Shown piece by piece: positions 3,297 to 61,896 of a stretch of 64,000 nucleotides of DNA. The stretch spans positions 3,618-67,617 of the forward strand of contig JACPWU010000021.1 in NCBI GenBank assembly GCA_016196885.1. Direction: 5' to 3'. Each line of letters starts with the position of its first letter. Within the stretch, counting starts at the first letter, position 1. This stretch comes from Chlamydiota bacterium. Its GTDB lineage: Bacteria; Auribacterota; JACPWU01. The position numbers and the translations under genes are program-made. The notes under the pieces were generated by a model. It was not told the DNA's origin and did no database searches. It was given only the letters and a program-made list of their open reading frames with translations.

Positions 3297-3386
3297 AAAA
3301 TGAAAAGTGTAAAATTAAAAATAAAGAAAAAAAGGTTTACTGAAATCGTTCTCAATTTTTCATTCTTAATTTTTCATTCTTAATTT
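3297..3386. repeat. Element J1 (aaaatgaaaagtg ... (aatttttcattctt)x2), lpxB-oxidoreductase junction
   Basis: Shares both ends with J2; encodes the C-terminus of the oxidoreductase. Confidence 0.5.
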
Positions 3387-14346: not shown

Positions 14347-14410
14347 ACACACCTCCTTTTCCGAGCCGGCGGCTTTTAATATTTAACAGTTATACGCCCT
14401 CGATGGCCCT

Positions 14411-14515
14411 GGTAGTCGCCCGATTCATCGGGCAATCCCTTGTAGTCACCCGATTCATCGGGCAAGATCCATGCAAGGGGCAAGGGACACGGCCCCATCC
14501 ATGGGGCGACTGCAA
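14411..14515. repeat. Degenerate A-family fragment in the ssb-rpsF intergenic region
   Basis: Two tandem cgcccgattcatcgggcaa hairpin modules plus ccatggggcgactgc. Confidence 0.5.
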
Positions 14516-14534
14516 ATTCTTCAAAAGCGCTTGA

Positions 14535-14816
14535 TTAATTCTTAATCAGGAGATATCTCAACACCTGAGCAGAAGTCCTAAGTTTGCTCTCCATCTTGCG
14601 CACGCCTTCAGAGGAAGATTGAAAGACCAAAAGGACATAAGTCCCTTCCCGAAATCCTTTCACTTTATAAGAAAGCATTTTCTTTCCTTGAATCTCACGA
14701 GTTTGAACACTTCCCCCCGCACTTGCCAATTCAGTCTCGAATCCTTTAACCCATTTCTCTGCCTCAGCATCCTGCAAAGCTGGATCTAAAATCATCATGG
14801 TTTCGTAGTTCTTCAA
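14535..14816 (-). CDS. rpsF: 30S ribosomal protein S6 (TTG start with strong SD AAGGAGG)
   Basis: MKNYETMMILDP aligns to S6 N-termini; canonical rpsF-ssb-rpsR-rplI order. Confidence 0.8.
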   Translation of the reverse strand: MKNYETMMILDPALQDAEAEKWVKGFETELASAGGSVQTREIQGKKMLSYKVKGFREGTYVLLVFQSSSEGVRKMESKLRTSAQVLRYLLIKN

Positions 14817-20586: not shown

Positions 20587-20662
20587 TTGAACTTTGTATT
20601 GAATAAGATCCTTCGCTCTCACTCAGGATGACACCCCGTGTCCCCCTTGAACCTTCCTTTGG
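20587..20662. repeat. Leader repeat D1 (5' of the bS22-like small gene, 3' of hisG)
   Basis: ttgaac(t)tt(g)tattgaat(a/g)agatccttcgct(c)tcac(t/c)caggatgacacc(c/t)cgtgtc...ctttcc; contains GACAC-N3-GTGTC palindrome. Confidence 0.55.
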
Positions 20663-21532
20663 TTAATATATCACCTTGTTCAGCGGATATTCAATAATTC
20701 CTTCAGCCCCTTGAGACTTTAACTTTGGAATCAGTTCGCGAACGATCTTTTCATCCACAATGGTTTCAACGGCTACCCATCCCTCTTGATTCAATTTGGA
20801 AATCGTCGGTTGACGAAGAGCGGGTAAAAGCGCCACCACCGCCTGCAGTTGATGATCGGGAACATTCATTTTCACACCGACTTTTTCCTCCGCCATCAAA
20901 GCCCCTTTTAAAAGAAGGGCCAGATTTTCAATTTTCTTCTTTTTCCAAGAATCTTCCCAAGCCTTTTTATTGGCGATCACGCGAGTCGTGGATTCCAAAA
21001 CCGTTTCAATGATGCGCAGATGATTGGCCCTGAGGCTCGATCCTGTTTCTGTGATTTCACAAATGGCATCCACCAATTCTGGGACCTTAATTTCTGTGGC
21101 CCCCCATGAAAATTCCACCTCTGCCTTGACACCCCGTTTCTTGAGAAAGGCCTTTGTAAGATTGACACCTTCTGTGGCTATTCTTTTCCCCTCCAAATCT
21201 TCCACCTTCTGAAATTTAGAATCATTGTGAACCGCGATCACCCACCTGACAGGGCGCAAACCTTGTTTGGCATAAATCAAATCGCAAACCTCATGCACAT
21301 CCGAACCATTCTCGACAATCCAGTCCTTGCCCGTGAGTCCCAAATCTAAAACGCCGGACTCTACGTAGCGAGACATCTCCTGAGCCCGAATTAAAATGGC
21401 CTCTATTTCATTGTCATTCACGGAAGGCTTGTAAGACCGCTCCCCCACACGAATGTCGTAGCCCGCCTTTTTAAAAAGGGTGAACGTGGATTCTTGGAGG
21501 CTTCCCTTGGGTAAACCTAACCTCAGCTTCAT
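20663..21532 (-). CDS. hisG: ATP phosphoribosyltransferase (long form with C-terminal regulatory domain)
   Basis: 289 aa; [13 protein letters not shown]-terminus and HisG catalytic plus C-terminal domains. Confidence 0.8.
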
Positions 21533-21547
21533 TCCCGTCTCCCTCTT

Positions 21548-21618
21548 TTGAACCTTTATTGAATGAGATCCTTCGCTTCACCCAGGATGACACCTCGTGT
21601 CACCTTTAAACTTTCTTT
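21548..21618. repeat. Leader repeat D2 (immediately 5' of hisG); A1 inserted at its distal end
   Basis: About 80 percent identical to D1; TGACAC-ctc-GTGTCA inverted repeat about 60 nt upstream of the hisG ATG. Confidence 0.55.
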
Positions 21619-21751
21619 TAGGCATATGCACTTGATTCCCCTCAGATAGAAAGAATTTGTAGTCGCCCCATTTATGGGGCAGCCTTGTGCCCCTTGCATG
21701 GATTGCCCGATGAATCGGGCGACTACTAGGGGAATCAAGTGCATATGCCTA
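21619..21751. mobile_element. MITE family A, copy A1 (133 bp; TIR TAGGCATATGCACTTGATTCCCCT; 8-bp TSD ctttcttt)
   Basis: Imperfect palindrome with terminal inverted repeats and two internal hairpin modules (cgcccgattcatcgggcg and gccccatttatggggc); flanked by identical 8-bp direct repeats. Confidence 0.75.
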
Positions 21752-22445
21752 CTTTCTTTTTATAAAAATCACAACAGGCGCGAATCACACACCTGGGGCA
21801 TCTGGGGTTTTTAACCTTGCAGGTGACTCGGCCATGTTTCATCAATTGAGAATGCAAACTCAATACCAAATATCGTGGCGCAACACAATGAATAACTTCT
21901 TGAACCGCTTCCAAAGGGGCATGATTCCACACCCATCCCAACCTTTTTGAAACCCGCTCTACATGAGTATCTATGGGCATGACAGGCCGATTCAGGGAAT
22001 ACAAAAGAACATGGCTGGCCGTTTTCACCCCAATCCCTTTTAGAGAAAGAAGATATTTTAAAGCCTGGGCTTCCTCCATTTCTCTCAAGAAATCCAGTGA
22101 CAACTCTTTTCGGTCCCGATAAATACGTCCTAAAATTCTTCTGATTCTTAAAGCCTTGGTGTGATTCAAACCGCCTTTTTGAATGGCCGAAGAAATTTCT
22201 CCCACGGGAGCTGCCATCAAACCTTCCCAATTCCTGAATTTCTTTTTCAGCCTTTCAAAAGCCTCTTGGGAGTGAAGAGGTGTGGTGTTCTGCGCAAGAA
22301 TGGTGAACACCAGTTCGTCAAGAGGACCTTTTTTTCCGTCCCGAACCAGACGTCCATGCTTTTCTTGCAGCAAATCATGGACTTTCATCACATTCATTCG
22401 AATGCGCTTTTGATCCTCTGGGGTCAGTTCTAAATTCATAAGCAC
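21735..22445 (-). CDS. nth: HhH-GPD endonuclease III-like DNA glycosylase with 4Fe-4S cluster loop
   Basis: HhH motif LKGIGVKTASHVL and cluster motif CKVKNPRCPRC; last four codons plus stop are supplied by the A1 MITE terminus. Confidence 0.7.
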   Translation of the reverse strand: MLMNLELTPEDQKRIRMNVMKVHDLLQEKHGRLVRDGKKGPLDELVFTILAQNTTPLHSQEAFERLKKKFRNWEGLMAAPVGEISSAIQKGGLNHTKALRIRRILGRIYRDRKELSLDFLREMEEAQALKYLLSLKGIGVKTASHVLLYSLNRPVMPIDTHVERVSKRLGWVWNHAPLEAVQEVIHCVAPRYLVLSLHSQLMKHGRVTCKVKNPRCPRCVIRACCDFYKKKVGICT

Positions 22446-23177: not shown

Positions 23178-23279
23178 AAATCTCAAATCCAAATATCAAA
23201 AATCAAAGATCAAAATTAAGGAAGAATTCAATTTAATGGACTCCTTAATTTTGGATTTTGAATTTTGGACTTTGATTTT
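23178..23279. promoter_or_regulatory. Palindromic array of ATCAAA(A) heptamers in the divergent purN / sigma-54-regulator promoter region
   Basis: Left arm tcaaatccaaatatcaaaaatcaaagatcaaaatt, right arm aattttggattttgaattttggactttgatttt, around an aagga...tcctt centre. Confidence 0.4.
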
Positions 23280-23288
23280 AAGGTAACC

Positions 23289-24737: not shown

Positions 24738-27419
24738 ATGAAAATCAATCTCGAAAAAATCCTGAGTCATGCCCAAGCTGAACTCCGCGTCCTTCCTCAG
24801 GGAGGAGATCAAGATTGGACTCGCCTCTTCAAAAAATTTCTTCACGTTGAGAACCATCGCCTTCTCATGGCCCATCGGTATGGAGCAGAAGGCCTCACCC
24901 TCATTCAAAACCGAAGCCATCTCATGGATATTTTGGTGAGGCATATTTTTGAATTGGCGCAAAGAGAGTACGCGATTCAACACGAGAGACCCCCCGTCAA
25001 AATGGCCCTGATTGCCCTGGGAGGCTACGGACGCCAAACCCTCAATCCCTGCTCGGACATTGACATTCTTTTTTTGGCGAAACAATCCTTGCAAACGCCC
25101 GAGGATCAAATTCTAAAACGCATTCTTTATCTTCTCTGGGACATTGGGCTCAAAGTGGGACAAGCGGTGAGAACCATTCCTCAAACAATCGAAGAGGGAA
25201 ATCGCGATTTTAAATCTCGGACCGCGATGATGGAGGCCCGTTTCATCACGGGAGATGAATCCCTTTTTGAAGAATTTCAAAAGCTCTTTTCCAAAAAATG
25301 TTCATCCCTTCGCATCGCAGATTATGTAGCCTTTAAACTTGAAGAGATCAAGACGCGCCATCAGAAATATCAGGGAACCGTTTATTTGCAAGAACCCCAC
25401 GTGAAAGAAGGCGTGGGGGGCTTAAGAGACATCGCCTCGATTCTTTGGCTTTATCAAGCCCTGAAGGGGTACCGAAGCTTTGAAGAACTTTTGGAACATC
25501 GCCTTATTTCAGAAAAAGAATTCAAGATCATCCAGAAATCCCTCAACTTTCTTCACCGCGTTCGAAATGAACTTCATTTTCTTTCTGGAAAATGTTTCGA
25601 CATTCTTTCCGTTCCCCTGCAGCCTAAGGTCGCGAGAAATCTAGGCTACCGTGACACACCGATTCTCAAAATGTCTGAATCCTTCATGAAGGATTATTAC
25701 CTTCATGTTCGAAACATCCATCAAATCACGCAAATGTTCCTTTCCCGAGACGAGATTCAAACCCAGCTCAAAATCCCTTTCCCCCAAAAATTCGTTCAGC
25801 GCCATGGGTTCTCATTCACCGCGGAAGAAATTTTTCCGGGAGAAAATCCAAATCTTTTCAGAGAAAATCCAGCCAAACTCTTCGAAGTCTTTCTCTACTG
25901 TGCCCAAGGCAATGACTCCCTCAGTCAAAGCTTAATTCAGCAAATTCGAGAGCATCTCTTTTTGGTGAATAAAAAAATACAAAGCTCTTCAGAAATATTG
26001 AATCACTTTGTTTCCCTCATGAGCTATGAAAGCCCCATTTCCAAAGCCCTTCGGGCCATGCATGATACAGGATTGCTTGGAAAGTATATTCCAGAATTCG
26101 GGAAGGCCACTTGTTTTGTTCAGCATGATTTCTATCATAAATACACCCTCGACGAACACACCTTGAAAGTGATCGAGTTTCTGGACGAACTTAAAACCAC
26201 ACAAGATCCCCGACAGCAAGGATTCTCGAAATTATTTAAGGAAATTCAAGAGCGGGACGTGCTTTTCCTCTCGGCCCTTTTTCATGACATTGCCAAAACC
26301 CAAGGTCATAACCATGCTGTGAATGGGGCTAAAATGGTGCAAGTGATTTTCGAGAGAATGCCTTACGACCCTATGAAGGCCGAGCGCGTGCGGCTCCTGG
26401 TCGAGCAACATCTGGTCATGTCTCATCTGTCGCAAAGAAGAGATCTCTCGGAAGAAAAAGTGATCATTGATTTTTCACAAAAGGTGGTGGATGTAGAAAA
26501 TCTAAAAATGCTTCAGCTCTTGACTTTTGCGGACTGGCGGGCGACCAGCGAAGACGTTTGGACTGAATGGCGAGAGGCCCTTTTATGGGAGCTTTTTTAT
26601 AAAACCAAGCGCTACCTGGAAGAAAAGGTGATTTTGCTCCCCTCAGAGATAGATGCCATGAAGGAATCGCACCTCGAGATTCTCACCCAAAAGGGCTTCT
26701 CTCGAGAGACCCTTATAAACCATCTGGAAACGCTGCCCGTCCATTATCTTCAGGCGTATCGTTCTGAAACCATCGCCGAACATATCAAGATGATTGAAGC
26801 ACTTCAAAATCAAGACCCCCAAATCCATTGGGACTATCATGAAAAAACCAATGTCACGGACCTGACCATCTGCACGCGAGATCATCTGGGACTTTTTTCG
26901 GAAATGGCGGGGGTGATTGCAAGCCAAGAAGTGAACATTTTGAGCGCTCATATCTTCACGCGAAAAGATGGTTTCATTCTGGATAAATTCTCCCTGGAAA
27001 ACCGTTACGAAAAGGGCATGCTCGACGAGCGGACACGTCAGAAAGTGGAAGAAGGAATGAGGAAGGTTTTGAAACGCACGGTGACGGTGGAAAGCTTTTT
27101 AAGGGCCCACACATCTCAAAAAATGACTGCCAAGAAGGCACAAGCCTTGATTAAATTTGACAACGAAACCAGCCTTGCCACCACTGTCGTGGAAATTCAA
27201 ACGGATGATGAAGTGGGATTTCTCTATAAGGTCACGCGAACGTTTTCAAAGCTGGGACTCAACATTCACCTGGCCAAAATTGCGACGGAAAAAGCTCAAA
27301 TATTGGATGTCTTTTACATCACCGATTTTGACGGAAAGAAAATTGACCACCCCAAGGTTCAAAAAGCGATTCAAGAAGAGCTTCAAAAAGCCATCCAAAG
27401 CCCGTTGGAAGAGATTTAA
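24738..27419 (+). CDS. glnD: Bifunctional [protein-PII] uridylyltransferase/uridylyl-removing enzyme
   Basis: 893 aa; NTase motif GGYGRQTLNPCSDIDILF, HD domain (FHDIAKT), two C-terminal ACT domains. Confidence 0.8.
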   Translation: MKINLEKILSHAQAELRVLPQGGDQDWTRLFKKFLHVENHRLLMAHRYGAEGLTLIQNRSHLMDILVRHIFELAQREYAIQHERPPVKMALIALGGYGRQTLNPCSDIDILFLAKQSLQTPEDQILKRILYLLWDIGLKVGQAVRTIPQTIEEGNRDFKSRTAMMEARFITGDESLFEEFQKLFSKKCSSLRIADYVAFKLEEIKTRHQKYQGTVYLQEPHVKEGVGGLRDIASILWLYQALKGYRSFEELLEHRLISEKEFKIIQKSLNFLHRVRNELHFLSGKCFDILSVPLQPKVARNLGYRDTPILKMSESFMKDYYLHVRNIHQITQMFLSRDEIQTQLKIPFPQKFVQRHGFSFTAEEIFPGENPNLFRENPAKLFEVFLYCAQGNDSLSQSLIQQIREHLFLVNKKIQSSSEILNHFVSLMSYESPISKALRAMHDTGLLGKYIPEFGKATCFVQHDFYHKYTLDEHTLKVIEFLDELKTTQDPRQQGFSKLFKEIQERDVLFLSALFHDIAKTQGHNHAVNGAKMVQVIFERMPYDPMKAERVRLLVEQHLVMSHLSQRRDLSEEKVIIDFSQKVVDVENLKMLQLLTFADWRATSEDVWTEWREALLWELFYKTKRYLEEKVILLPSEIDAMKESHLEILTQKGFSRETLINHLETLPVHYLQAYRSETIAEHIKMIEALQNQDPQIHWDYHEKTNVTDLTICTRDHLGLFSEMAGVIASQEVNILSAHIFTRKDGFILDKFSLENRYEKGMLDERTRQKVEEGMRKVLKRTVTVESFLRAHTSQKMTAKKAQALIKFDNETSLATTVVEIQTDDEVGFLYKVTRTFSKLGLNIHLAKIATEKAQILDVFYITDFDGKKIDHPKVQKAIQEELQKAIQSPLEEI

Positions 27420-27446
27420 CCCAGATTTTGCAATAGACGCGAGAAC
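27417..27446. repeat. Half-copy G2 (taacccagattttgcaatagacgcgagaac) overlapping the glnD stop codon
   Basis: Exact reverse complement of the right 30 bp of G1. Confidence 0.6.
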
Positions 27447-28433: not shown

Positions 28434-28790
28434 TAGCCCACGTTTCATCTGAAAATAGTCTTTAGTTATTCTTATACAATAAGTTATGATGACTTGTAGT
28501 CGCCCGATTCATCGGGCAGCCCCATAAATGGGGCGACTACAAGGGTGATTTTCATCCCCCTTTGTGACGGACAGTCATGGCCGCGCGAGGAACGCCTGAG
28601 TCCGCCTTGGATGCGAGGAAGACGCTCCGTGCCATGTGAGGCGTATTTTACAGTACGTCGAGCACGGCCGACCTCTCTTGCGACGCCAGACGAGGCGGAC
28701 TTGGCGCTCGCAGCAGAAATGTGATGAGAAATGTGGGCCAGAAGAAAGATTTCTCAGTCGGGCATCCCGATGTAGCATCGGGATGCTCTT
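28434..28790. repeat. Composite repeat C1 (~355 bp: arm containing an A-core hairpin pair plus ~160-bp palindromic core)
   Basis: Arm tagccc(a/g)cgtttcatctgaaaatagtcttta...gtagtcgcccgattcatcgggcagccccataaatggggcgactacaagggtgattttcatccccctttgtgac...agtcatggcc is shared with C2 in inverted orientation; the core is shared in direct orientation. Confidence 0.65.
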
Positions 28791-30573: not shown

Positions 30574-30593
30574 AATAAAATTTTCCTTGAGAA

Positions 30594-30746
30594 GTGGGTG
30601 GTCCGACTGGGGGTCCCCCGACAAGCGCCAGCAGGTGGAGTCAACGGCTTCTAACAATAACCTATCAAGAACTGACCCGACACCGACCCCACAGGGGGGC
30701 TATAACCTCTGTGCCGTTGTCGGGGGTGAGGAGGAACAGGACCCAC
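30594..30746. repeat. Structured element family B, copy B1 (tsaC-sufT intergenic)
   Basis: Shares ccgactgggggtccccc...cgccagcaggtggag...cgaccccacagggg(g)ctataacctctgtgccg...gggggtgaggagg with B2 and B3; helix segments differ between copies but stay complementary. Confidence 0.7.
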
Positions 30747-30755
30747 TTCTCATCT

Positions 30756-31304: not shown

Positions 31305-31323
31305 TCACTCTACCTCCAACAAA

Positions 31324-31472
31324 GCGGGTGTCCCGACTGGGGGTCCCCCACTGTGCGCCAGCAGGTGGAGTCCTACATCTCCTTACTTCCATATGTGACT
31401 TTCCCGACACCGACCCCACAGGGGCTATAACCTCTGTGCCGACAGTGGGGGTGAGGAGGGACAGGCCCCGCT
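31324..31472. repeat. Structured element family B, copy B2 (sufT-sufU intergenic)
   Basis: As B1; terminal helix gcggg/cccgc and internal helix actgtg/cacagt. Confidence 0.7.
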
Positions 31473-31479
31473 ACCTTAA

Positions 31480-38410: not shown

Positions 38411-38498
38411 CCCTCCCTCTGAAAAGAATTCATATGAAAAGAACTCACAAATGATACTATCTTTAAAAAGAGGAGCAAGTCCTTTTTTAAATTTTTAA

Positions 38499-38631
38499 TA
38501 GGCATATGCACTTGATTCCCCTAGTAGTCGCCCGATTCATCGGGCAATCCATGCAAGGGGCACAAGGCTGCCCCATCAATGGGGCGACTACAAATTCTTG
38601 CTATCTGAGGGGAATCAAGTGCATATGCCTA
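38499..38631. mobile_element. MITE family A, copy A2 (133 bp, inverted relative to A1; 8-bp TSD atttttaa), inserted at the left terminus of element B4
   Basis: Near-identical to the reverse complement of A1; flanked by atttttaa on both sides. Confidence 0.75.
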
Positions 38632-38803
38632 ATTTTTAAAAGTGTGTCCTTTATTCATGCGGGTGACACCCAACAGGGTCCCCATCAAGTGCCAGAAGAA
38701 AGAGTCATTTGCATCAGCCATACATCTGGCATCCCTCATCGAGACCGATGCCGTTGATGGGGTGGTTGGGCGGCAGGACCCGCCCCCTTTCCAAAGGACA
38801 CAC
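38632..38803. mobile_element. MITE-like element B4: same outer TIRs as B3 but a different ~110-bp structured core
   Basis: TIR aaaagtgtgtccttt...aaaggacacacttttaaatac; subterminal gcgggtg...cccgcc; internal long-range complement cccaacagggtccccatcaa / ttgatggggtggttggg. Confidence 0.6.
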
Positions 38804-38940
38804 TTTTAAATACATCATCATCAAAAATAGGTAGACACTTCTAGGAAAAATTATGAGATAATTCGAACAAAGAAGGAGTCTCGACCCTGAAACGAATTTT
38901 CATATTCTTAAGCATTTTTCTTCTTTCAGCCTCTCTGGCC

Positions 38941-39639: not shown

Positions 39640-39762
39640 AGGTGATATAGATATTCTCTGATAAGGGCAAACTATCCGTAAGGATAGGACGCAAAGCCAT
39701 GGGCCCCTGGGTAGCTAGGGAGGGGGGTCGCCAGGTTGCCGGAGCATAGGCTGAAGAGTCAA
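39640..39762 (+). promoter_or_regulatory. Candidate c-di-GMP-I (GEMM) riboswitch aptamer
   Basis: GGGCAAAC, then 5-bp stem with GUAA (GNRA) tetraloop, then GGACGCAAAGCC, then a second GC-rich hairpin. The junction strings and stem length match the Vibrio cholerae Vc2 aptamer as recalled from memory. Confidence 0.6.
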
Positions 39763-40229: not shown

Positions 40230-43200
40230 ATGATGAAGTCCAACTGGATGAAGAGGGGGATTGTGTCATGCATCTTGGGAGTGGGGTTGTGGGGAAGCGC
40301 CAGTCTCTTTTCATTTTCTGATGAAGAAAAGAAATACGCCCCCGATGAATTGCTCGTCCGCTATAAACCAGGGGTTTCGAGTGCCCAAATCCGGCAGTTG
40401 AGAAAGGCCATCCATGCCGAACGTCTCGAGAAGTTTTCCATCAATGATGTGCAGCATTATAAACTCGAGGCCGGTCAGTCTCTTCAAGAAGCTCTTTCAG
40501 AGTTAAAGGGTTCCTCCAAAGTTCTTTACGCAGAACCCAATTATGTTGTGGAGTTAAATCAAACCCCCAACGATCCCGACTTTTCCAAACTCTACGGAAT
40601 GAATAACACCGGCCAGACCGGCGGTACAGCTGACGCCGACATTGATGCCCCCGAGGCTTGGAATACACAGACTGGAAATCAGAACCTCGTGATCGCGATT
40701 ATTGATACGGGCGTGGACTACAACCATCCGGATCTGGCAGCAAATATCTGGACCAATCCCAAGGAAATTGCAGGCAACGGCATAGACGATGACGGCAACG
40801 GTTACGTGGACGATATTCATGGTTGGGATTTTTATAACAAGGACGCCGATCCCATGGATGATCATTACCATGGCACTCACGTAGCGGGCACCATTGCAGG
40901 AGTGGGCAATAACGGCATCGGTGTGACAGGCGTGGTCTGGAAAGCCAAGATCATGGCACTTAAATTCTTGAGCTCGGGTGGATCGGGATACACTTCAGGT
41001 GCGATTTCGGCGATCAATTATGCCACTCAAATGGGCGCAAAAATTTCCAATAACAGCTGGGGGGGCGGGGGCTATTCGCAGGCCTTGAAAGATGCCATCA
41101 CGGCCAATCAGAATGCAGGGGCTTTGTTTGTAGCCGCTGCAGGAAATAGCGGCGTCAATGCAGACACTTCTCCCATGTATCCCGCGGCTTATGACGTGGC
41201 CAATATTATTTCTGTGGCTGCGACGGACGCTAAAGATCAATTGGCCTCTTTTTCAAATTATGGAAAAACCAGCGTGGATTTAGGGGCCCCGGGGGTGAGT
41301 ATTTACAGCACTGCTCCCAACAACACGTATAAAACCTTAAGTGGGACTTCCATGGCAACCCCTCATGTCGCGGGAGCGGTCGCCTTAATCTGGTCTCAAT
41401 TTCCGAGCCTGACGAATCTTCAGGTGAAAGATAAATTGCTCGTCTCCACAGATCCGATTTCAGCCCTGTCTGGAAAAACGGTGAGCGGGGGAAGGCTCAA
41501 CATCAATAATTTTATGGAGAATGACACGACGGCCCCGGCCCCTGTCACTAATTTAGCCACTTCCAGCGTTTCCTATTTTACCACCACACTCACGTGGACA
41601 GCGACGGGAGACGATGGTTTCACAGGACAGGCAAGCACCTATGATTTGCGCTATTCTACGAGTGCCATCACAGAGTCTAATTTTTCCTCGGCCCTTCAGG
41701 CGTCCGGGCTCCCCTCACCTAAGACTTCAGGACAGACAGAGACTTTTAAGGTGACAGGACTTTCTTCCAACACGGCTTATTATTTTGCACTCAAGGTGAA
41801 GGACAACGTGGGAAATACTTCTTCCCTTTCGAATGTGATTTCAGCCACCACCTCTCAGGGAACCACTTTCTACCAGGATAATTTTGAGAATGGCCAGGGA
41901 AGTTGGGTCACAGGAGGAACAAACGGCACGGGTGGAGGGACCTTGTGGCATCTTTCAACCCGTAAATCCAACAGTGCGACCCATTCCTTCTATTATGGCA
42001 GTGAGTCCAAGGGTAATTACAACACAGGACAAGCCAATTATGGTTGGATCACTTCTCCCAAAATTTATTTAACCTCGGCTACCAATTCCACTTTGATTTT
42101 TAACCACTATCTGACGACGGAGAATCTGGCCCCCTATGATGAAGGAAGTGTCAGAATTTCAACAGACGGCGGATCCACTTTTACAACGCTCAACAAATTC
42201 TATTCAACCAGCTCAAAATGGCAACAGGTTTCCGTAGATCTTTCGAAATATGATGGGAAAACCGTCTACATTCAATTTTATTTTACGACGCTGGACGCGC
42301 TCTACAACAGTTATGAAGGTTGGTATGTGGACGATGTGCAGGTGATGGCAGATGGGCAAGGTGACACCACACCTCCTGCCGCGATCAGTAATTTGGCAAT
42401 TTCTTCTCTGGGTCAATATTCCCTGACATTGAACTGGACGGCGACAGGAGACGATGGGAATACGGGAACAGCCTCTTTCTACGATTTACGCTACTCCACG
42501 AGCACCATCACAGATTCCAACTTTTCTTCGGCCGTTCAAGTCTCAGGCCTCTCTTCCCCGAAGGCGGCCGGAAATTCCGAATCCTTTGAAGTGAAGAATC
42601 TTTCCAGTGGAGTCACTTATTATTTTGCGATCAAGGCCACGGACGATCTTTCCAATACCTCCGCTATTTCAAACGGGGTGAATGGAAAAACAAAAACGGG
42701 ACCCAAAATCAGCGTGTCTCCCAGCACCCTTGCGAAAGTCAGTTTGGATGTTGGGAAATCAACCACACAGTCCCTGACGATCCAAAACACAGGCGATGAA
42801 AATTTGACATTTGACATCACAGAAATTCCGACAACCACCGCCAGCAGTGCTGAATCTTCCTCCTCTTTGGAAACGGGATCGAGCGCGTCAGCTGCCTATG
42901 CACCTTCCCAAATTTTGGTGAAATTTAAAGAGGGCCTGTCTGAGGCAGCCATTCATGGACTCGGAGATTCAGTGGACGCAAGAACCGTTAAAATTTATTC
43001 CGACATTGATGTCCATTTGATTGAAACCGCTTCAGGATTGGATGCCCAGGAAATGGCCAGAATGTACCTGGCGAGCGGCTTGGTAGAATATGCAGAACCC
43101 AATTATGTTGTTCAAGCCTTAAGTACCTTCCCCAACGATTCTTCTTTCTCTCAACTCTACGGCCTTCACAACACAGGACAAACGGGGGGAACCGCAGATG

Positions 43201-46200
43201 CGGACATTGACGCCCCTGAGGCCTGGGACACTACAAAGGGGGCAAGCTCGGTCGTGGTGGCAGTGATTGACACGGGTGTAGATTACACACATCCTGACTT
43301 ATCAGCCAACATGTGGACAAACTCAGGAGAAATCCCAAACAATGGATTGGACGATGACGGAGATGGTTATGTGGACGACTATCGAGGATGGGATTTTGTG
43401 AACGAAGACAATGATCCTATGGATGACAATAAGCATGGCACACACGTTTCCGGAACCATTGGTGGAGTTGGAAACAACGGTACAGGCGTCGCCGGTGTTT
43501 GTTGGAACGTCAAAATCATGCCTCTTAAATTCTTAAGTGGGAGTGGGTCTGGATACACCTCGGATGCAGTCGAGGCCGTTCTTTACGCCAATAAAAAAGG
43601 TGCGAATGTGATGAGCAACAGCTGGGGCGGCGGCGGATATTCTCAGGCCCTGTATGACGCTATTAAAGCGGCCGAGGTGAAAGGCATTCTCTTCGTAGCC
43701 GCCGCGGGAAATAGCTCGAGCAACAATGATCAAGTGGCCAATTATCCCTCGAATTACAACATCTCGAACGTCATTGCCGTCGCAGCCACAGATGCGAACG
43801 ATGCCCTGGCCTGGTTTTCAAATTATGGAGCGAACACGGTTCATTTGGGCGCCCCGGGGGTCAGCATCTATAGTACCCTGCCGGGAAACACCTATGGCTC
43901 TTTGAGTGGAACTTCCATGGCGACCCCCCATGTAGCTGGGGCTTGTGCCCTCGTGTGGTCCGCGAATCCTTCCTGGAATTATGCGAAAGTGAAAAATCAG
44001 ATCATGGTGGGCACAGATAAAATTTCGAGCATGAGTGGTAAAACAGTTTCAGGCGGTCGGCTGAATGTTTACAAAGCCCTTCAAGCGGCAGAAACCACGC
44101 CTCCCTCAGCCGTCACCGATTTGTCCAGCTCCATGGTTTCTTTTTCCACCCTTAAACTTAAATGGACGGCAACGGGGGATGATGGCAATACCGGAACAGC
44201 CACCTCTTACGAGATTCGTTATTCTACAAGTTCTATCACGAGTTCTAACTTTAGTTCCGCTACGTTGATCAGCAATACCCCCACACCCAAATCTGCTGGA
44301 GGGGCTGAAGAATTCAACGTCACAGGCCTTTCCCAAAAGACAACTTATTACTTTGCCATGAAAGTGACCGATGATGCCAGCAACACCTCTGGCCTTTCGA
44401 ATGTGACCTCTGCCACCACAGACGAAGCGGTGGTAACCTACTTGGATAGCATGGAAACAGGAGCCGGATGGACGGTGACAGGCTTGTGGCATCTTTCCAC
44501 ACGAAAATCTAACAGCCCCACGCATTCTTTCTATTATGGAGACGAGACCAAAGGAAATTACGATACAGGTTCTACCACCCAAGGGACGCTGACATCCTCT
44601 ACCATCGACCTTTCATCGGGGGTCACGCCTCAACTCTCTTTTCAATATTGGAGAAAAGTGGAGTCGGGAGGGATCTATGACAAAACCTATTTAGAAATTT
44701 CAAAAGACAATGGCTCCAATTGGACCCAGCTTTGGTACAAGAACTCCAGCAACACCTCTGAACAAGCCTGGACCAGTTCTGGACCCTTGGATTTAAGCTC
44801 TTACAAAGGCGCTAAAGTCCTTTTGAGATTTACCTTTGATTCTGTGGATGCCTACTTGAATTTTTATGAAGGATTCTACGTGGATGATGTTCAAATCTTG
44901 GATTCAAAAACAGATTTTAACTGGCTCTCCGTGCAACCAGCAACAGGAACCTTAACAGCCAATCAATCTAGCACCGTGACCTTAACCTACACAGCCGTTT
45001 CTAGCGGAACTTACAAAGGAGCCATTCTGATTAAGAGCAATGACCCTGCCAAACCCTCTACCACCCTTTCTCTAGAGTTGACAGCCACTCAAGACACAAC
45101 AGCCCCCTCCGCCATCAGCAATTTAAAAGTTGCCTCCATTGCCAGCAGCAACACCTCTCTAACCCTGACATGGACAGCGCCAGGCGATGACGACAACGTG
45201 GGAACGGCCAGCTCTTATGAAATTCGCTACTCTACAAGCCTCATAACAGATGCTAATTTCAGCGCGGCCACTTTGGCTCCAAATCCACCCACGCCCCAAG
45301 TCGCGGGAAGCACTGAAACCTTCAGCCTGACAGGGCTCGCCCTTTCACAAAATTATTATTATGTTGCGATCAAGACCCAGGACGATGTGGGGCAAGTTTC
45401 TAGCCTCTCCAATGTGGTCAAGACGAGTGACTTGGATTCCGATGGGGACGGGTTGTGCGACCAAGATGAGTACAGCATGGGCACAGATCCTCTCAAGTCA
45501 GATACAGATTCCGATGGGTTCAGCGATGGCCAGGAAAAATCGATTGGGACGGATCCTGTGAAGAGCACAGATTTCCCAGCCACGATTATTCTGACATGCG
45601 ACAATGCCTATGAAATTTACATCAATGGTGTCTTCAAAGGGAATGACTCTAATTGGACAAACAAAGAAACATATTATGCAAAGTTAGGAGACACCATCGC
45701 CATTAAAGGCATAGATCTCGGCGGCATTGCAAGTCTCCTTTGCCAAATCAGCCATGGAAATAAAATCATGCCTTCCAATTTTCTCTGGAAGGCTTCACCT
45801 CAAGCCGCCTCGGGCTGGACAAATCCAAACTTTGACGACTCTTCTTGGCCAGGTGCAGTAGAACATTTTGCATACGGACATGGGCCCTGGGAACAATGGG
45901 TGAACGGATTTGACGCCAGCAACAATTGGATCTGGACGAATCGGCCGGAGGAACATGATACTGTCTATTTTCGGCGGAAGGTGGACTTTTCACAAAATGC
46001 CCTCTTACGGGTTACGGCAGATAATGCCTTTGAAGCTTGGCTGGATGGTCAATACCTGGGATCCAGCAATGTGTGGCATCTGCCCAAATTTTTTATTGGG
46101 ACTGTCAGTGAAGGCAGCCTCATCGCCCTTCACGGGATAGACCTGGGAGGGATAGGAGGACTGCTTGCCTCTCTTACCTACGTGGACTCGAATGGAAAAA

Positions 46201-47336
46201 GGCAAATGGTAGGAACCAACTCCTCATGGAAAATAAGTACCACATCCTCCTCGGGCTGGCAAAACACAGGCTTTGACGAAAACAGCTGGTCCTCAGCGAC
46301 AGAGTGGGCTGCCTTCGGAAGTGGGGTGTGGGGTTCTTTTGACATGGGTGCCCATTTTTCGAATGCAAGCCAAGCCAAGTGGATTTGGGCCTCGGACCCC
46401 TATTCTATCGATGACATCTATGCGAGAAAAACGATCCTCACCCCCAACGCAACACTCAGCATGACGGCGGACAACAAGTTCAAAGTTTATCACAATGGGA
46501 ACCTCGTTGCCTCCAGCTCCCAATGGTGGTCCCCCGCCGTCGTCGGTCTTAATAATCTCCAAAATGGAGACGTCATTGCTGTGAGGGCCGATGATGAAGG
46601 AGGCATTGCAGCGTTTCTTGCAAAGCTGGACTTTAATGGAACTCAAATCTTCTCAAATACAACATGGAAGGCCTCCACAGGACCTTTCTGGGAAGCAGAC
46701 CTCTCTTGGACGTCAAAAAGCTATGACGACTCGAACTGGACAAGCGCCTTCCCAGTCGGAGGCAACGGAATATCCCCGTGGGGATATTTGTCTGACTGTG
46801 GGAGTGCGCAATGGATTTGGGCCTCATCAGACACGGACGGTGTCAACACCTCTTTTTTTAGGTGGACGGTGGGAACCAACAATACAGAAGTAGGTGTAAC
46901 CTCTTTTCTGGTCAGCGCAGACAATGAATACAAGTTCTACAAGAATGGTGTGCTCATCACATCAGGAAGTCGGTGGTATATGCCGGAGAGCTTCACATGT
47001 TTATTATCCCCTGGGGATGTCATTGCGATCGAGGCAAGAGATTATGGTTATAAAGCGGGACTTTTGCTCTACGCCTCCGGGGCTTATAACCTCGTCTCGG
47101 ACAGCTCTTGGAAAATGAGTACCACCGAACAGTCGGGAGGATGGGCGAGTAAAACATTTGACGACTCTGGCTGGGCTTCAGCCAGTGATCACGGGGCCTA
47201 CGGCATTGCACCTTGGGGAAGCAATGCTTCAGGATTCCCAACCAGTTCTTCAGCTCGTTGGATTTGGGGCCCCAACAATCAGACTGGGGCAACAAACATT
47301 GATTCCCACGTCTTCTTCAGAAAGAAAATTGCTTAA
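40230..47336 (+). CDS. 2368-aa secreted multidomain protein with two complete propeptide(I9)-subtilisin(S8) units, Fn3-like and MAM/lectin-like jelly-roll domains, thrombospondin-type-3-like Ca-binding repeats and four C-terminal ~150-aa beta-sandwich repeats
   Basis: Signal peptide; catalytic triads present twice (IDTGVDY(N/T)HPDL, HGTHV(A/S)GTI, GTSMATPHVAG); repeated LxWTAxGDDGxxGxAxxYxxRYSTSxITxxNFSSA modules; DSDGDG motifs; repeats containing WIW and FDDSxW. Confidence 0.8.
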   Translation: MMKSNWMKRGIVSCILGVGLWGSASLFSFSDEEKKYAPDELLVRYKPGVSSAQIRQLRKAIHAERLEKFSINDVQHYKLEAGQSLQEALSELKGSSKVLYAEPNYVVELNQTPNDPDFSKLYGMNNTGQTGGTADADIDAPEAWNTQTGNQNLVIAIIDTGVDYNHPDLAANIWTNPKEIAGNGIDDDGNGYVDDIHGWDFYNKDADPMDDHYHGTHVAGTIAGVGNNGIGVTGVVWKAKIMALKFLSSGGSGYTSGAISAINYATQMGAKISNNSWGGGGYSQALKDAITANQNAGALFVAAAGNSGVNADTSPMYPAAYDVANIISVAATDAKDQLASFSNYGKTSVDLGAPGVSIYSTAPNNTYKTLSGTSMATPHVAGAVALIWSQFPSLTNLQVKDKLLVSTDPISALSGKTVSGGRLNINNFMENDTTAPAPVTNLATSSVSYFTTTLTWTATGDDGFTGQASTYDLRYSTSAITESNFSSALQASGLPSPKTSGQTETFKVTGLSSNTAYYFALKVKDNVGNTSSLSNVISATTSQGTTFYQDNFENGQGSWVTGGTNGTGGGTLWHLSTRKSNSATHSFYYGSESKGNYNTGQANYGWITSPKIYLTSATNSTLIFNHYLTTENLAPYDEGSVRISTDGGSTFTTLNKFYSTSSKWQQVSVDLSKYDGKTVYIQFYFTTLDALYNSYEGWYVDDVQVMADGQGDTTPPAAISNLAISSLGQYSLTLNWTATGDDGNTGTASFYDLRYSTSTITDSNFSSAVQVSGLSSPKAAGNSESFEVKNLSSGVTYYFAIKATDDLSNTSAISNGVNGKTKTGPKISVSPSTLAKVSLDVGKSTTQSLTIQNTGDENLTFDITEIPTTTASSAESSSSLETGSSASAAYAPSQILVKFKEGLSEAAIHGLGDSVDARTVKIYSDIDVHLIETASGLDAQEMARMYLASGLVEYAEPNYVVQALSTFPNDSSFSQLYGLHNTGQTGGTADADIDAPEAWDTTKGASSVVVAVIDTGVDYTHPDLSANMWTNSGEIPNNGLDDDGDGYVDDYRGWDFVNEDNDPMDDNKHGTHVSGTIGGVGNNGTGVAGVCWNVKIMPLKFLSGSGSGYTSDAVEAVLYANKKGANVMSNSWGGGGYSQALYDAIKAAEVKGILFVAAAGNSSSNNDQVANYPSNYNISNVIAVAATDANDALAWFSNYGANTVHLGAPGVSIYSTLPGNTYGSLSGTSMATPHVAGACALVWSANPSWNYAKVKNQIMVGTDKISSMSGKTVSGGRLNVYKALQAAETTPPSAVTDLSSSMVSFSTLKLKWTATGDDGNTGTATSYEIRYSTSSITSSNFSSATLISNTPTPKSAGGAEEFNVTGLSQKTTYYFAMKVTDDASNTSGLSNVTSATTDEAVVTYLDSMETGAGWTVTGLWHLSTRKSNSPTHSFYYGDETKGNYDTGSTTQGTLTSSTIDLSSGVTPQLSFQYWRKVESGGIYDKTYLEISKDNGSNWTQLWYKNSSNTSEQAWTSSGPLDLSSYKGAKVLLRFTFDSVDAYLNFYEGFYVDDVQILDSKTDFNWLSVQPATGTLTANQSSTVTLTYTAVSSGTYKGAILIKSNDPAKPSTTLSLELTATQDTTAPSAISNLKVASIASSNTSLTLTWTAPGDDDNVGTASSYEIRYSTSLITDANFSAATLAPNPPTPQVAGSTETFSLTGLALSQNYYYVAIKTQDDVGQVSSLSNVVKTSDLDSDGDGLCDQDEYSMGTDPLKSDTDSDGFSDGQEKSIGTDPVKSTDFPATIILTCDNAYEIYINGVFKGNDSNWTNKETYYAKLGDTIAIKGIDLGGIASLLCQISHGNKIMPSNFLWKASPQAASGWTNPNFDDSSWPGAVEHFAYGHGPWEQWVNGFDASNNWIWTNRPEEHDTVYFRRKVDFSQNALLRVTADNAFEAWLDGQYLGSSNVWHLPKFFIGTVSEGSLIALHGIDLGGIGGLLASLTYVDSNGKRQMVGTNSSWKISTTSSSGWQNTGFDENSWSSATEWAAFGSGVWGSFDMGAHFSNASQAKWIWASDPYSIDDIYARKTILTPNATLSMTADNKFKVYHNGNLVASSSQWWSPAVVGLNNLQNGDVIAVRADDEGGIAAFLAKLDFNGTQIFSNTTWKASTGPFWEADLSWTSKSYDDSNWTSAFPVGGNGISPWGYLSDCGSAQWIWASSDTDGVNTSFFRWTVGTNNTEVGVTSFLVSADNEYKFYKNGVLITSGSRWYMPESFTCLLSPGDVIAIEARDYGYKAGLLLYASGAYNLVSDSSWKMSTTEQSGGWASKTFDDSGWASASDHGAYGIAPWGSNASGFPTSSSARWIWGPNNQTGATNIDSHVFFRKKIA

Positions 47337-51162: not shown

Positions 51163-51177
51163 AAGGGAATCTCCAGA

Positions 51178-51250
51178 GGACAGAACTCAGAATACAGAAT
51201 AAATACAACTCCTTAATCATTCTGACTTCTGAGTTCTGTCTTCTGTCTTC
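51178..51250. repeat. Palindromic element I2 upstream of parA
   Basis: ggacagaactcagaatacagaata...tcattctgacttctgagttctgtcttctgtc. Confidence 0.5.
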
Positions 51251-51396: not shown

Positions 51397-51844
51397 TTGT
51401 AGTCGCCCCATTTATGGGGCCATGCATGGATTGCCCGATAAATCGGGCGACTACGCTTGACGGATCAAGAATACTTGAGCCAAGTCCATATGCCAAAATT
51501 TATTTCTCCGACAGGCTCCTAGCCCGCATTTCTCATCAGATTTCGTCGCGAGTCCGCCTAAGGTGGATTGGAGGGGAGGTTGCACGACTGAGGCCATGCG
51601 AGGCATACCTTACAGTATGTTGAGCGTGGCCGACCGAGTCTGCACGGAGGGACGAAGCGGAATCGGAGAAGAGCGGCAGAAATCTGACGAGAAACGGCCA
51701 TGACTTTCAGTCACAAAGGGGGATGAAAATCACCCTTGTAGTCGCCCCATTTATGGGGCTGCCCGATGAATCGGGCGACTACAAGTAATCATAACTTATT
51801 GTATAAAAATAAGTAAAGACTATTTTCAGATGAAACGCGGGCTA
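51397..51844. repeat. Composite repeat C2 (inverted-arm copy of C1, with an extra A-core hairpin at its left end)
   Basis: Core gcatttctcatcagatttcg...ttacagtatgttgagcgtggccgacc...gcagaaatctgacgagaaac followed by the reverse-complemented C1 arm; overlaps the stop of the hypothetical secreted-protein gene. Confidence 0.65.
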
Positions 51845-59458: not shown

Positions 59459-59663
59459 GTATTTAAAAGTGTGTCCTTTTATGGATGCGGGTGGCCCGAC
59501 TGGGGGTCCCCCGCTGATCGCCAGCAGATGGAGAACATGGACCTCTCGTTACATTCAAAACCCAACCGACATCGACCCCACGGGGGCTATAACCTCTGTG
59601 CCGTCAGCGGGGGTGAGGAGGGACAGGACCCGCCTCCTCTTAAAAGGACACACTTTTAAATAC
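59459..59663. mobile_element. Family B copy B3 with outer 22-bp TIRs GTATTTAAAAGTGTGTCCTTTT / AAAAGGACACACTTTTAAATAC (MITE-like), upstream of the Phd-PIN module
   Basis: B core at 59487..59634 flanked by perfect terminal inverted repeats. Confidence 0.65.
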
Positions 59664-59741: not shown

Positions 59742-59822
59742 AACCCAGAATTTGCAATAGGCCGCGGAATTCGACGCAAGATCTTGCTCTTGAGTTCTCG
59801 CGTCTATTGCAAAATCTGGGTT
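59742..59822. repeat. Palindromic element G1 (aacccagaatttgcaatag ... ctattgcaaaatctgggtt)
   Basis: 81-bp element with 19-bp terminal inverted repeats and internal gcaagatcttgc palindrome, between yidC stop and element B3. Confidence 0.6.
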
Positions 59823-59901
59823 AAAAAGTAACCCTCCCATTCCCCCCTTACAAGCGAGTCCGGGTGCTCTGAAGAAACGTATCTCGAGAAAAAAAGGGGG
59901 T

Positions 59902-61597: not shown

Positions 61598-61682
61598 GAA
61601 AAATGAAAAGTGAACAATGAAAATTTGCCAAGAACTTTAACGAAATTCACTTCTTATTCTTAATTTTTCATTCTTAATTTTT
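61598..61682. repeat. Element J2, yidD-yidC junction
   Basis: gaaaaatgaaaagtgaac...attcttaatttttcattcttaattttt; overlaps the yidD stop and creates the N-terminal GTG extension of the yidC ORF. Confidence 0.5.
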
Positions 61683-61896
61683 AACTGTCCTTTATTGGAT
61701 CATATCCGCCCGAGTGAAAGGGATGACATTTTAAAATTCTTTTTAAACCCAAAAATAAACCTCGCCAGCCCCCTTTTTTCTCGACCGCAAGGCGACAATA
61801 CTCCGAGCAATTGGGCTGGAAACGACAGGCGGGCCCGAGAAAAGGTGAAACGAGCGTTTGATACATCCGAATCAAAAGAGAAACAAGCATTTTCAT
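61681..61896 (-). CDS. yidD: Membrane protein insertion efficiency factor YidD
   Basis: YQTLVSPFLGPACRFQPNCSEYCRLAVEKKG is the YidD signature. Confidence 0.8.
   Translation of the reverse strand: MKMLVSLLIRMYQTLVSPFLGPACRFQPNCSEYCRLAVEKKGGWRGLFLGLKRILKCHPFHSGGYDPIKDS

Follow-up and report, generated by a model that had tools for sequence, protein, structure and literature searches.

An element present twice in the window

The window, by which we mean the whole 64,000-nt stretch of DNA analysed here, is unusually rich in small repeats. It is part of contig JACOUD010000001.1 of MAG GCA_016178005.1, listed at NCBI as Chlamydiae bacterium. An endonuclease III-like gene (nth) and hisG lie on the same strand, and a 133-bp element, A1, occupies the end of nth and the space between the two genes. 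A second copy, A2, lies at the edge of another MITE-like element, B4 (Table 1).

Table 1. Positions of the family A copies, their duplications and the related repeats.
Feature	Position	Strand	Remarks
Endonuclease III-like (HhH-GPD) gene	21735..22439	-	last four codons (GICT) and stop inside A1
MITE copy A1 (133 bp)	21619..21751	-	on the minus strand reads in A2's orientation
A1 TSD, left (ctttcttt)	21611..21618		direct reading of letters
A1 TSD, right (ctttcttt)	21752..21759		direct reading of letters
A1 terminal inverted repeat, 24 bp	21619..21642	+	partner 21728-21751 on the minus strand
GTAG-tagged doublet in A1	21659..21726		units 21659-21680 (+) and 21705-21726 (-); 24-nt spacer
MITE copy A2 (133 bp)	38499..38631	+	TIRs 38499-38522 and 38608-38631
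A2 TSD, left (atttttaa)	38491..38498		direct reading of letters
A2 TSD, right (atttttaa)	38632..38639		overlaps outer edge of B4 left terminus
GTAG-tagged doublet in A2	38524..38591		units 38524-38545 (+) and 38570-38591 (-)
MITE-like B4, host of nested A2	38635..38810		18-mer inverted repeats 38635-38652 and 38793-38810; true ends a few bases further out
Decayed family A copy	14387..14537 (bounds approximate)	+	degenerate termini; extra hairpin unit 14412-14433; doublet 14442-14513
Decayed family A-like copy	51399..51496	-	doublet 51399-51454 (12-nt spacer); one recognisable terminus, ending 51496
Tight doublet outside family A	28496..28540		1-nt spacer; inside 150-bp repeat 28434-28583
Tight doublet outside family A	51738..51782		1-nt spacer; inside 150-bp repeat 51695-51844
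Tight doublet, ~3.5 kb left of the window	L035:15667-15711		third identical copy, in yet another context

A1 and A2 are mutual reverse complements with 2 mismatches over their 133 positions (98.5% identity), and the sequences flanking them are unrelated. Each is bounded by perfect 24-bp terminal inverted repeats (TIRs) and by perfect 8-bp target-site duplications (TSDs), the sequence of which differs between the copies. Exact matches to the 24-mer TAGGCATATGCACTTGATTCCCCT number exactly four in the window (21619+, 21751-, 38499+, 38631-), against none in 100 shuffles, and they fall into two inverted pairs, 21619/21751 and 38499/38631; this family, referred to as family A, has TAGGCATATGCAC... 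ends. The element is non-coding, its sole open reading frames being read-through artefacts, and an Rfam scan returned no family match, only microRNA-precursor noise far below threshold. As a whole it folds into one long hairpin (DNA, -43.9 kcal/mol, z -9.6; RNA, -76.9 kcal/mol, z -11.2). The window holds two intact copies and two decayed ones. The original prediction had described A1 and A2 as 133-bp reverse complements flanked by perfect 8-bp repeats and had called them MITEs; this description stands, allowing for the two mismatches, for an element that is short and non-coding and has perfect TIRs and TSDs. Its reading of the ORF-track peptides as element translations was likewise correct for both MHLIPLVVARFIGQSMQGAQGC... 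frames, which run through A1 and A2.

Short elements elsewhere with the same terminus

We searched for the terminus in other sequence collections. In a collection of representative genomes, among which the genome studied here is not included, the single match lay in another MAG (L008), where the same terminus tip encloses an unrelated interior and the TSD is ttatttta. Scanning metagenomes with the conserved tip yielded 14 loci, mostly elements of 110-192 bp with several different interiors. There was no match to the terminus in viral contigs and none in a blastn comparison of A2 with plasmids, and a protein search with the 42-aa peptide accidentally encoded by the MITE, run to find further copies, gave no candidates.

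Thirteen short elements with the terminus were checked, comprising A1, A2 and 11 from other MAGs or metagenomes. A script detected a perfect 8-bp TSD in eight of them (A1, A2, L008, L011, L015, L017, L019 and L021); L009 has one by eye, and L010 has one if a 1-nt indel in the terminus is allowed, for a total of 8 to 10 out of 13. The original prediction had held that other copies lacking flanking direct repeats would count against it, and most of the other elements with the terminus do have 8-bp TSDs. Across the copies compared, the base 5' of the TSD is mostly A and the base 3' mostly T, a pattern that we take to be a preference for AT-rich A-N8-T targets. The A that usually precedes the TSD had raised the idea of an obligatory 9-bp or 10-bp duplication, which was rejected, as L011 excludes 9 bp and A2 excludes 10 bp. 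A TA duplication with GGC...GCC ends was also rejected because it would leave the 8-bp repeats unexplained. We also observed a 68-bp mini-element (L022:231-298) with the same terminus tip, almost no interior and no matching TSD.

MITEs from an unrelated metagenome (OBEQ01; L011, L012 and L020) share with family A the identical 24-bp terminus, the hairpin doublet described below and part of one linker. Their outer stem carries a compensatory change, from GTAGTC...GACTAC to GTAGTT...AACTAC. This sharing of terminus, doublet and part of the linker indicates that the doublet was already in an ancestral MITE.

Full-length insertion sequences with the same ends

A metagenomic element of 1,014 bp (L013:424-1437) has the termini TAGGCGTATGCACTTGATTCCCCTA and TAGGCATATGCACTTGATTCCCCTA, identical to those of family A at 24/24 and 23/24 positions. 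Its single ORF encodes 304 aa with a Zn_ribbon_IS1595 domain (PF12760, 45.7 bits) and a DDE_Tnp_IS1595 domain (PF12762, 101.8 bits), and it scores 196.5 bits against NCBIfam NF033547 (cutoff 75). The G+C content of this insertion sequence (IS) is 60.7%, compared with 50.5% for its flanks, and is also far above that of its own AT-rich termini. Homologues of this transposase at E <= 1e-30 number at least 8,000, and most lie on contigs of ~1 kb. Full-length relatives on longer contigs measure 1,017-1,021 bp and are 72-77% identical in amino acid sequence, and a clade of full-length IS (P0025) has the same terminus as family A. The nearest annotated transposases from cultured organisms share just 51-57% identity. 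The same termini occur in hosts with contig G+C contents of about 40% to 57%, which suggests that this IS clade has spread widely by horizontal transfer.

Three distinct full-length insertions are flanked by 8-bp TSDs, ATTGGGAA (L027), AAAGATAA (L030/L032) and TTTGAAAA (L031); L030 and L032 represent one insertion present in two records and were counted once. On a plasmid of Legionella antarctica, an annotated copy of the IS1595 family (L034) has the homologous terminus CAGGGCTATGCAGTTGACT and the TSD TTATTATT. Matching TSDs are missing from L013 itself and likewise from the copies L023-L026, L029, L016 and L022, possibly because different copies were joined during assembly or the sites were rearranged later. 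The flanks of L023-L026, full-length IS of the P0025 clade, do not match each other, and those of L026 are mutually reverse-complementary (tgaaagataaaa / ttttatctttca), probably an assembly artefact at a multi-copy IS.

IS1595 members usually generate 8-bp TSDs and encode a zinc finger together with DDE_Tnp_IS1595 (PMC8101967), and an IS1595-derived MITE with 25-bp inverted repeats and 8-bp direct repeats is on record (PMC3852290, Table 4). On sequence grounds, then, family A is an IS1595-type MITE, given the matching termini of full-length IS, the 8-bp TSDs of both the IS and the short elements, and the published rule for the family. A parent from ISL3 or IS256, which the original prediction had named as examples, was not borne out, since the full-length elements with these termini encode IS1595-family transposases. 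On the contig itself, tblastn with the transposase found no IS1595 transposase gene or fragment in the window, only noise, the called genes of the 9.5 kb left flank (L035) include no transposase domain, and no transposase gene was seen in the ~73.5 kb of contig examined.

A1 at the end of the endonuclease III-like gene

The nth-like frame now ends in ...CDFYKKKVGICT, that is, ...YKKKVGICT and the stop. The original prediction had A1 rewriting this C-terminus, which agrees with the position of GICT and the stop inside the element, and when we deleted A1 and one TSD in silico the frame returned, also as had been claimed, to a shorter ending (...CDFYKKKV, 230 aa) across a reconstructed empty junction that reads ...TTTTTATAAAAAGAAAGTTTAAAGGTGACAC.... 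The four Fe-S cysteines (C-X6-C-X2-C-X5-C) are upstream of the changed tail. Homologues of nth at 57-66% identity have short, variable, basic tails, none with the VGICT ending that, if common to homologous genes, had been named as a sign of ancestral sequence. Because the change lies after the Fe-S cysteines and homologue tails are short and variable, a functional consequence of the four added residues seems unlikely.

A ~90-nt repeated unit occurs on the minus strand at 20590-20690 and 21540-21620, immediately downstream of and overlapping the stops of hisG and of the pre-insertion nth. It contains a GACAC-GGG-GTGTC hairpin followed by GTCATCCTGAGTGA..GCGAAGGATCT and ATTCAATA.AAGTTCAAAAG, and represents either a further family of small repeats or a 3' element common to both genes. 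The nth copy of this unit is the one in which A1 is inserted. The reconstructed empty site aligns continuously with the uninterrupted copy just downstream of hisG, which thereby provides an internal empty-site control in support of the insertion. Among related sequences we found no empty orthologous nth-hisG site, the closest nth homologue being 66% identical. Three independent Logan assemblies, from three runs, all already carry A1 and break inside its terminus on both sides, as is expected of an assembler at a multi-copy repeat.

We infer the insertion of A1 from its TSD, the near-identity of A1 and A2, and the uninterrupted paralogous unit. A1 would have landed in the last sense codon of the endonuclease III-like gene, giving the protein four extra residues (GICT), and would at the same time have placed a very stable hairpin between this gene and hisG. 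An effect of the predicted hairpin on nth-hisG read-through is possible. A consensus scan detected no promoter created by the insertion.

A2, the B family and other features of the window

The B family is MITE-like, with a GC-rich interior, and is represented at 38635-38810 and 59462-59660. Its 18-mer inverted repeat TTTAAAAGTGTGTCCTTT is found at 38635/38810 and 59462/59660, and a longer terminus of 22 nt, TGTATTTAAAAGTGTGTCCTTT, is common to three of the four B ends. The right-hand TSD of A2 (38632-38639) overlaps the first 5 nt of the B 18-mer and falls within the 22-nt terminus of the other three ends. This overlap upholds the earlier claim that A2 is nested in the left terminus of B4, and locates it at the outer edge; on this reading A2 inserted into the outer portion of the B4 terminus. 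B-related repeats were seen at 30592-30751, 31322-31476 and 59485-59638, and segments of the B interior recur at ~30.6 and 31.4 kb.

Several other features of the window were recorded. A 32-nt perfect inverted repeat (TTTAACCCAGATTTTGCAATAGACGCGAGAAC) has its two arms 32 kb apart, at 27415-27446 and 59794-59825. Short AT-rich motifs in tandem or inverted arrangement (TTTTCATTCTTAATTT, AGAATTCAGAAGTCAGAAT and others like them) recur in the intergenic segments 3343-3386, 61651-61694, 23182-23282 and 51174-51249. A c-di-GMP-I-GGC riboswitch (Rfam RF03167, 67.4 bits) is located at 39657-39744 (+), upstream of short ORFs and of a 2,368-aa ORF at 40230-47336.

The core is a GTAG-tagged hairpin doublet

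The interior of family A consists of two 22-nt units in inverted orientation, GTAGTCGCCCGATTCATCGGGC (G-type) and GTAGTCGCCCCATTTATGGGGC (C-type), each made of GTAGTC and a 16-nt palindrome (unit motif GTAGTCGCCC). The window contains 13 units, with 0 expected, and a generic scan for GTAG next to a GC-rich palindrome found only this family there. Units always pair as one G-type with one C-type, inverted and with GTAG outside, at spacers of 1, 12, 24 or 28 nt; this arrangement was seen in all six doublets of the window, in one in L035 and in those of L011 and L012. In the hairpin, 98% of cells are paired and the sole variable pair switches cleanly between G-C and C-G; the covariation amounts to essentially one event. 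The units are locally dense and lie outside long ORFs, except where A1 overlaps the end of nth.

The doublet also occurs outside family A. A tight 49-nt form, TTGTAGTC...GACTACAA, occurs without any sequence difference at 28.5 kb, at 51.75 kb and in L035, in unrelated flanks and with no trace of the family A terminus. The original prediction had listed four sites of degenerate family A core hairpins. The hairpins do recur at all four, but only those at 14.4 and 51.4 kb belong to degenerate family A copies, the other two (28.5 and 51.75 kb) being perfect tight doublets in a 150-bp repeat. The two copies of that repeat are 96% reverse-complementary and built around the tight doublet, with weaker similarity beyond; we recognised no termini or duplications at either. 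In L035 (15570-15810) the stand-alone doublet sits inside an extended palindrome of its own (ATGAAAGTyCTTTTT...AAAAAGGACTTTCAT) and adjoins sequence resembling a tRNA 3' end (GGTTCGAATCCCGC).

As far as the letters can tell, the core hairpins form a separate module, a REP-like doublet with GTAG tags that is also intact outside family A, and the family A interior is not the remnant of a transposase gene. By analogy with known repeats, the doublet is probably a second mobile module, of REPIN type and handled by RAYT (HUH tyrosine transposase). A tblastn search of the window and the other loci examined gave no match to a RAYT gene, a weak negative given that the only query was an approximate E. 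coli RAYT sequence.

Origin of family A

The best explanation of these data as a whole, to which we assign a probability of roughly 0.85, is that the family A element is a MITE, a non-autonomous DNA transposon, of the IS1595 family, mobilised in trans and built around a REP-like doublet. Its termini, its TSDs and a full-length IS1595-family element bearing identical ends have been shown directly, and we infer the mobilisation in trans. A full-length IS of ~1 kb would supply an IS1595-type transposase, with an N-terminal zinc ribbon and a DDE domain, that recognises the 24-bp TIRs and inserts the element into AT-rich DNA by an 8-bp staggered cut, repair of which would leave the 8-bp duplication. 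The doublet would have become the core of an ancestral MITE and would now travel with it.

Other origins of the element were weighed against this one. Every assembly of this population carries A1 and no empty-site strain was found, as would be the case if A1 were ancestral sequence or a segmental duplication and not a product of transposition; this is barely credible when the copies are 98.5% identical between unrelated flanks, both have perfect TSDs of different sequence, nth homologues lack the tail and the paralogous unit is uninterrupted at the equivalent point. Just as slight is the chance that the MITE belongs to another family with 8-bp TSDs, ISL3 or IS256, as no element of either family with these ends was seen and the sole full-length elements found with them encode IS1595-family transposases, although the length of the TSD by itself would suit both families. 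Alternatively, the whole 133-bp element might be an extended REPIN moved by an HUH enzyme (RAYT or IS200/IS605-type), with the TIRs as the outer part of a long palindrome. The folding of the entire element into one long hairpin is consistent with this, as are recorded GTAG dimers within longer palindromes (PMC3733652). We nevertheless consider an extended REPIN very improbable, because a DDE (IS1595) transposase gene is found between the very same 24-bp ends and elements with these ends and unrelated interiors exist. Moreover, most copies are flanked by perfect 8-bp TSDs, which argue against HUH movement, since single-strand HUH transposition is not known to make target-site duplications.

With family A read as an IS1595-type MITE, the history of its core can be pictured in more than one way. 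It is a real though minority possibility that the doublet is simply the MITE's own palindromic core, with the stand-alone doublets being MITE relics without termini, or copies spread by recombination, and RAYT playing no part. The decayed family A copies at 14.4 and 51.4 kb still hold the doublet, no RAYT match was obtained in the window and loci examined (with the approximate query, a weak negative), and truncated MITEs that come to resemble REPs are known in Coxiella QMITE2 (PMC10969869). In contrast, the tight 49-nt doublet has one and the same sequence at 28.5 kb, at 51.75 kb and in L035 despite unrelated flanks and no family A terminus, and the GTAG tag and HH heterodimer layout fit the REP class (PMC3733652). 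A further reading, which we advance tentatively and think rather unlikely, is a composite of two systems, in which a REPIN-type doublet (an HUH/RAYT substrate) became the core of an IS1595-type MITE (a DDE substrate). It might have arisen if the loop exposed when a MITE palindrome is extruded is a favoured target of single-strand transposition. If such a composite did arise, a very widespread IS family would carry the doublet from genome to genome. Its architecture, seen also in an unrelated metagenome and possibly in Anabaena, would then mark a recurrent route for seeding REP families in new lineages.

Significance

Family A is well supported and is an ordinary kind of bacterial mobile DNA, and its value here is a reliable annotation for an uncultured lineage. 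A1 accounts for the assembly breaks between nth and hisG in this population, and the odd C-terminus of the endonuclease III-like protein can be read as a transposon artefact and not as biology. The transposase family responsible is identified as IS1595, of which metagenomes contain extremely large numbers (at least 8,000 close homologues). The single point of broader interest is that a GTAG REP-like doublet lies within DDE-type termini, which suggests that two unrelated kinds of miniature mobile element interact; this arrangement has a partial precedent in Anabaena that was noted in passing in 2013 (PMC3733652) and apparently never taken further.

Comparison with known systems

Among IS1595 elements and their MITEs, the Haloquadratum walsbyi MITE of 165 bp, linked to ISHwa6, has 25-bp inverted repeats and 8-bp direct repeats (PMC3852290, Table 4). 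Family A resembles this group in its TIRs of 24-25 bp, its 8-bp TSDs, a size in the range of 130-190 bp and termini that are those of a ~1 kb IS encoding a single transposase with zinc ribbon and DDE_Tnp_IS1595 domains. It differs in that its interior is a GTAG REP-like doublet and not an internally deleted IS, and in that its cognate IS came to light in metagenomes other than this one. The cyanobacterial Nezha MITE is linked to ISNpu3 (PMC3184786), the IS family of which is not given in the reviews that mention it.

GTAG-tagged REPs form HH heterodimers with spacers of 1-100 bp (Di Nocera et al. 2013, PMC3733652). The doublets described here share with these REPs, and with REPINs and BIMEs, a GTAG at one end of a 22-nt GC-rich palindrome, HH dimers with GTAG outside, heterodimeric pairing of units with different stems and loops, spacers within that range (1 to 28 nt) and, in the window, a mostly extragenic location and a high local density; unlike them, some of the doublets here are enclosed by DDE-type termini with duplications. 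In Anabaena (Trichormus) variabilis, GTAG-15 dimers lie inside long palindromes TATAGGAnTnnnATTTGATT... (PMC3733652), and as in family A a GTAG dimer is thus enclosed by a long terminal palindrome. By eye only, the A. variabilis consensus resembles the family A terminus (TAGG..T...TTGATT); the first 50 kb of A. variabilis plasmid A contained no copy of the published consensus palindrome.

Finally, Rickettsia palindromic elements, ERIC and Anabaena MITEs are known to fuse to host ORFs (PMC10969869, PMC3184786). As in those cases, a small palindromic repeat in a coding region provides in-frame codons or a stop, whereas A1 adds just four residues at the extreme C-terminus, after the last Fe-S cysteine.
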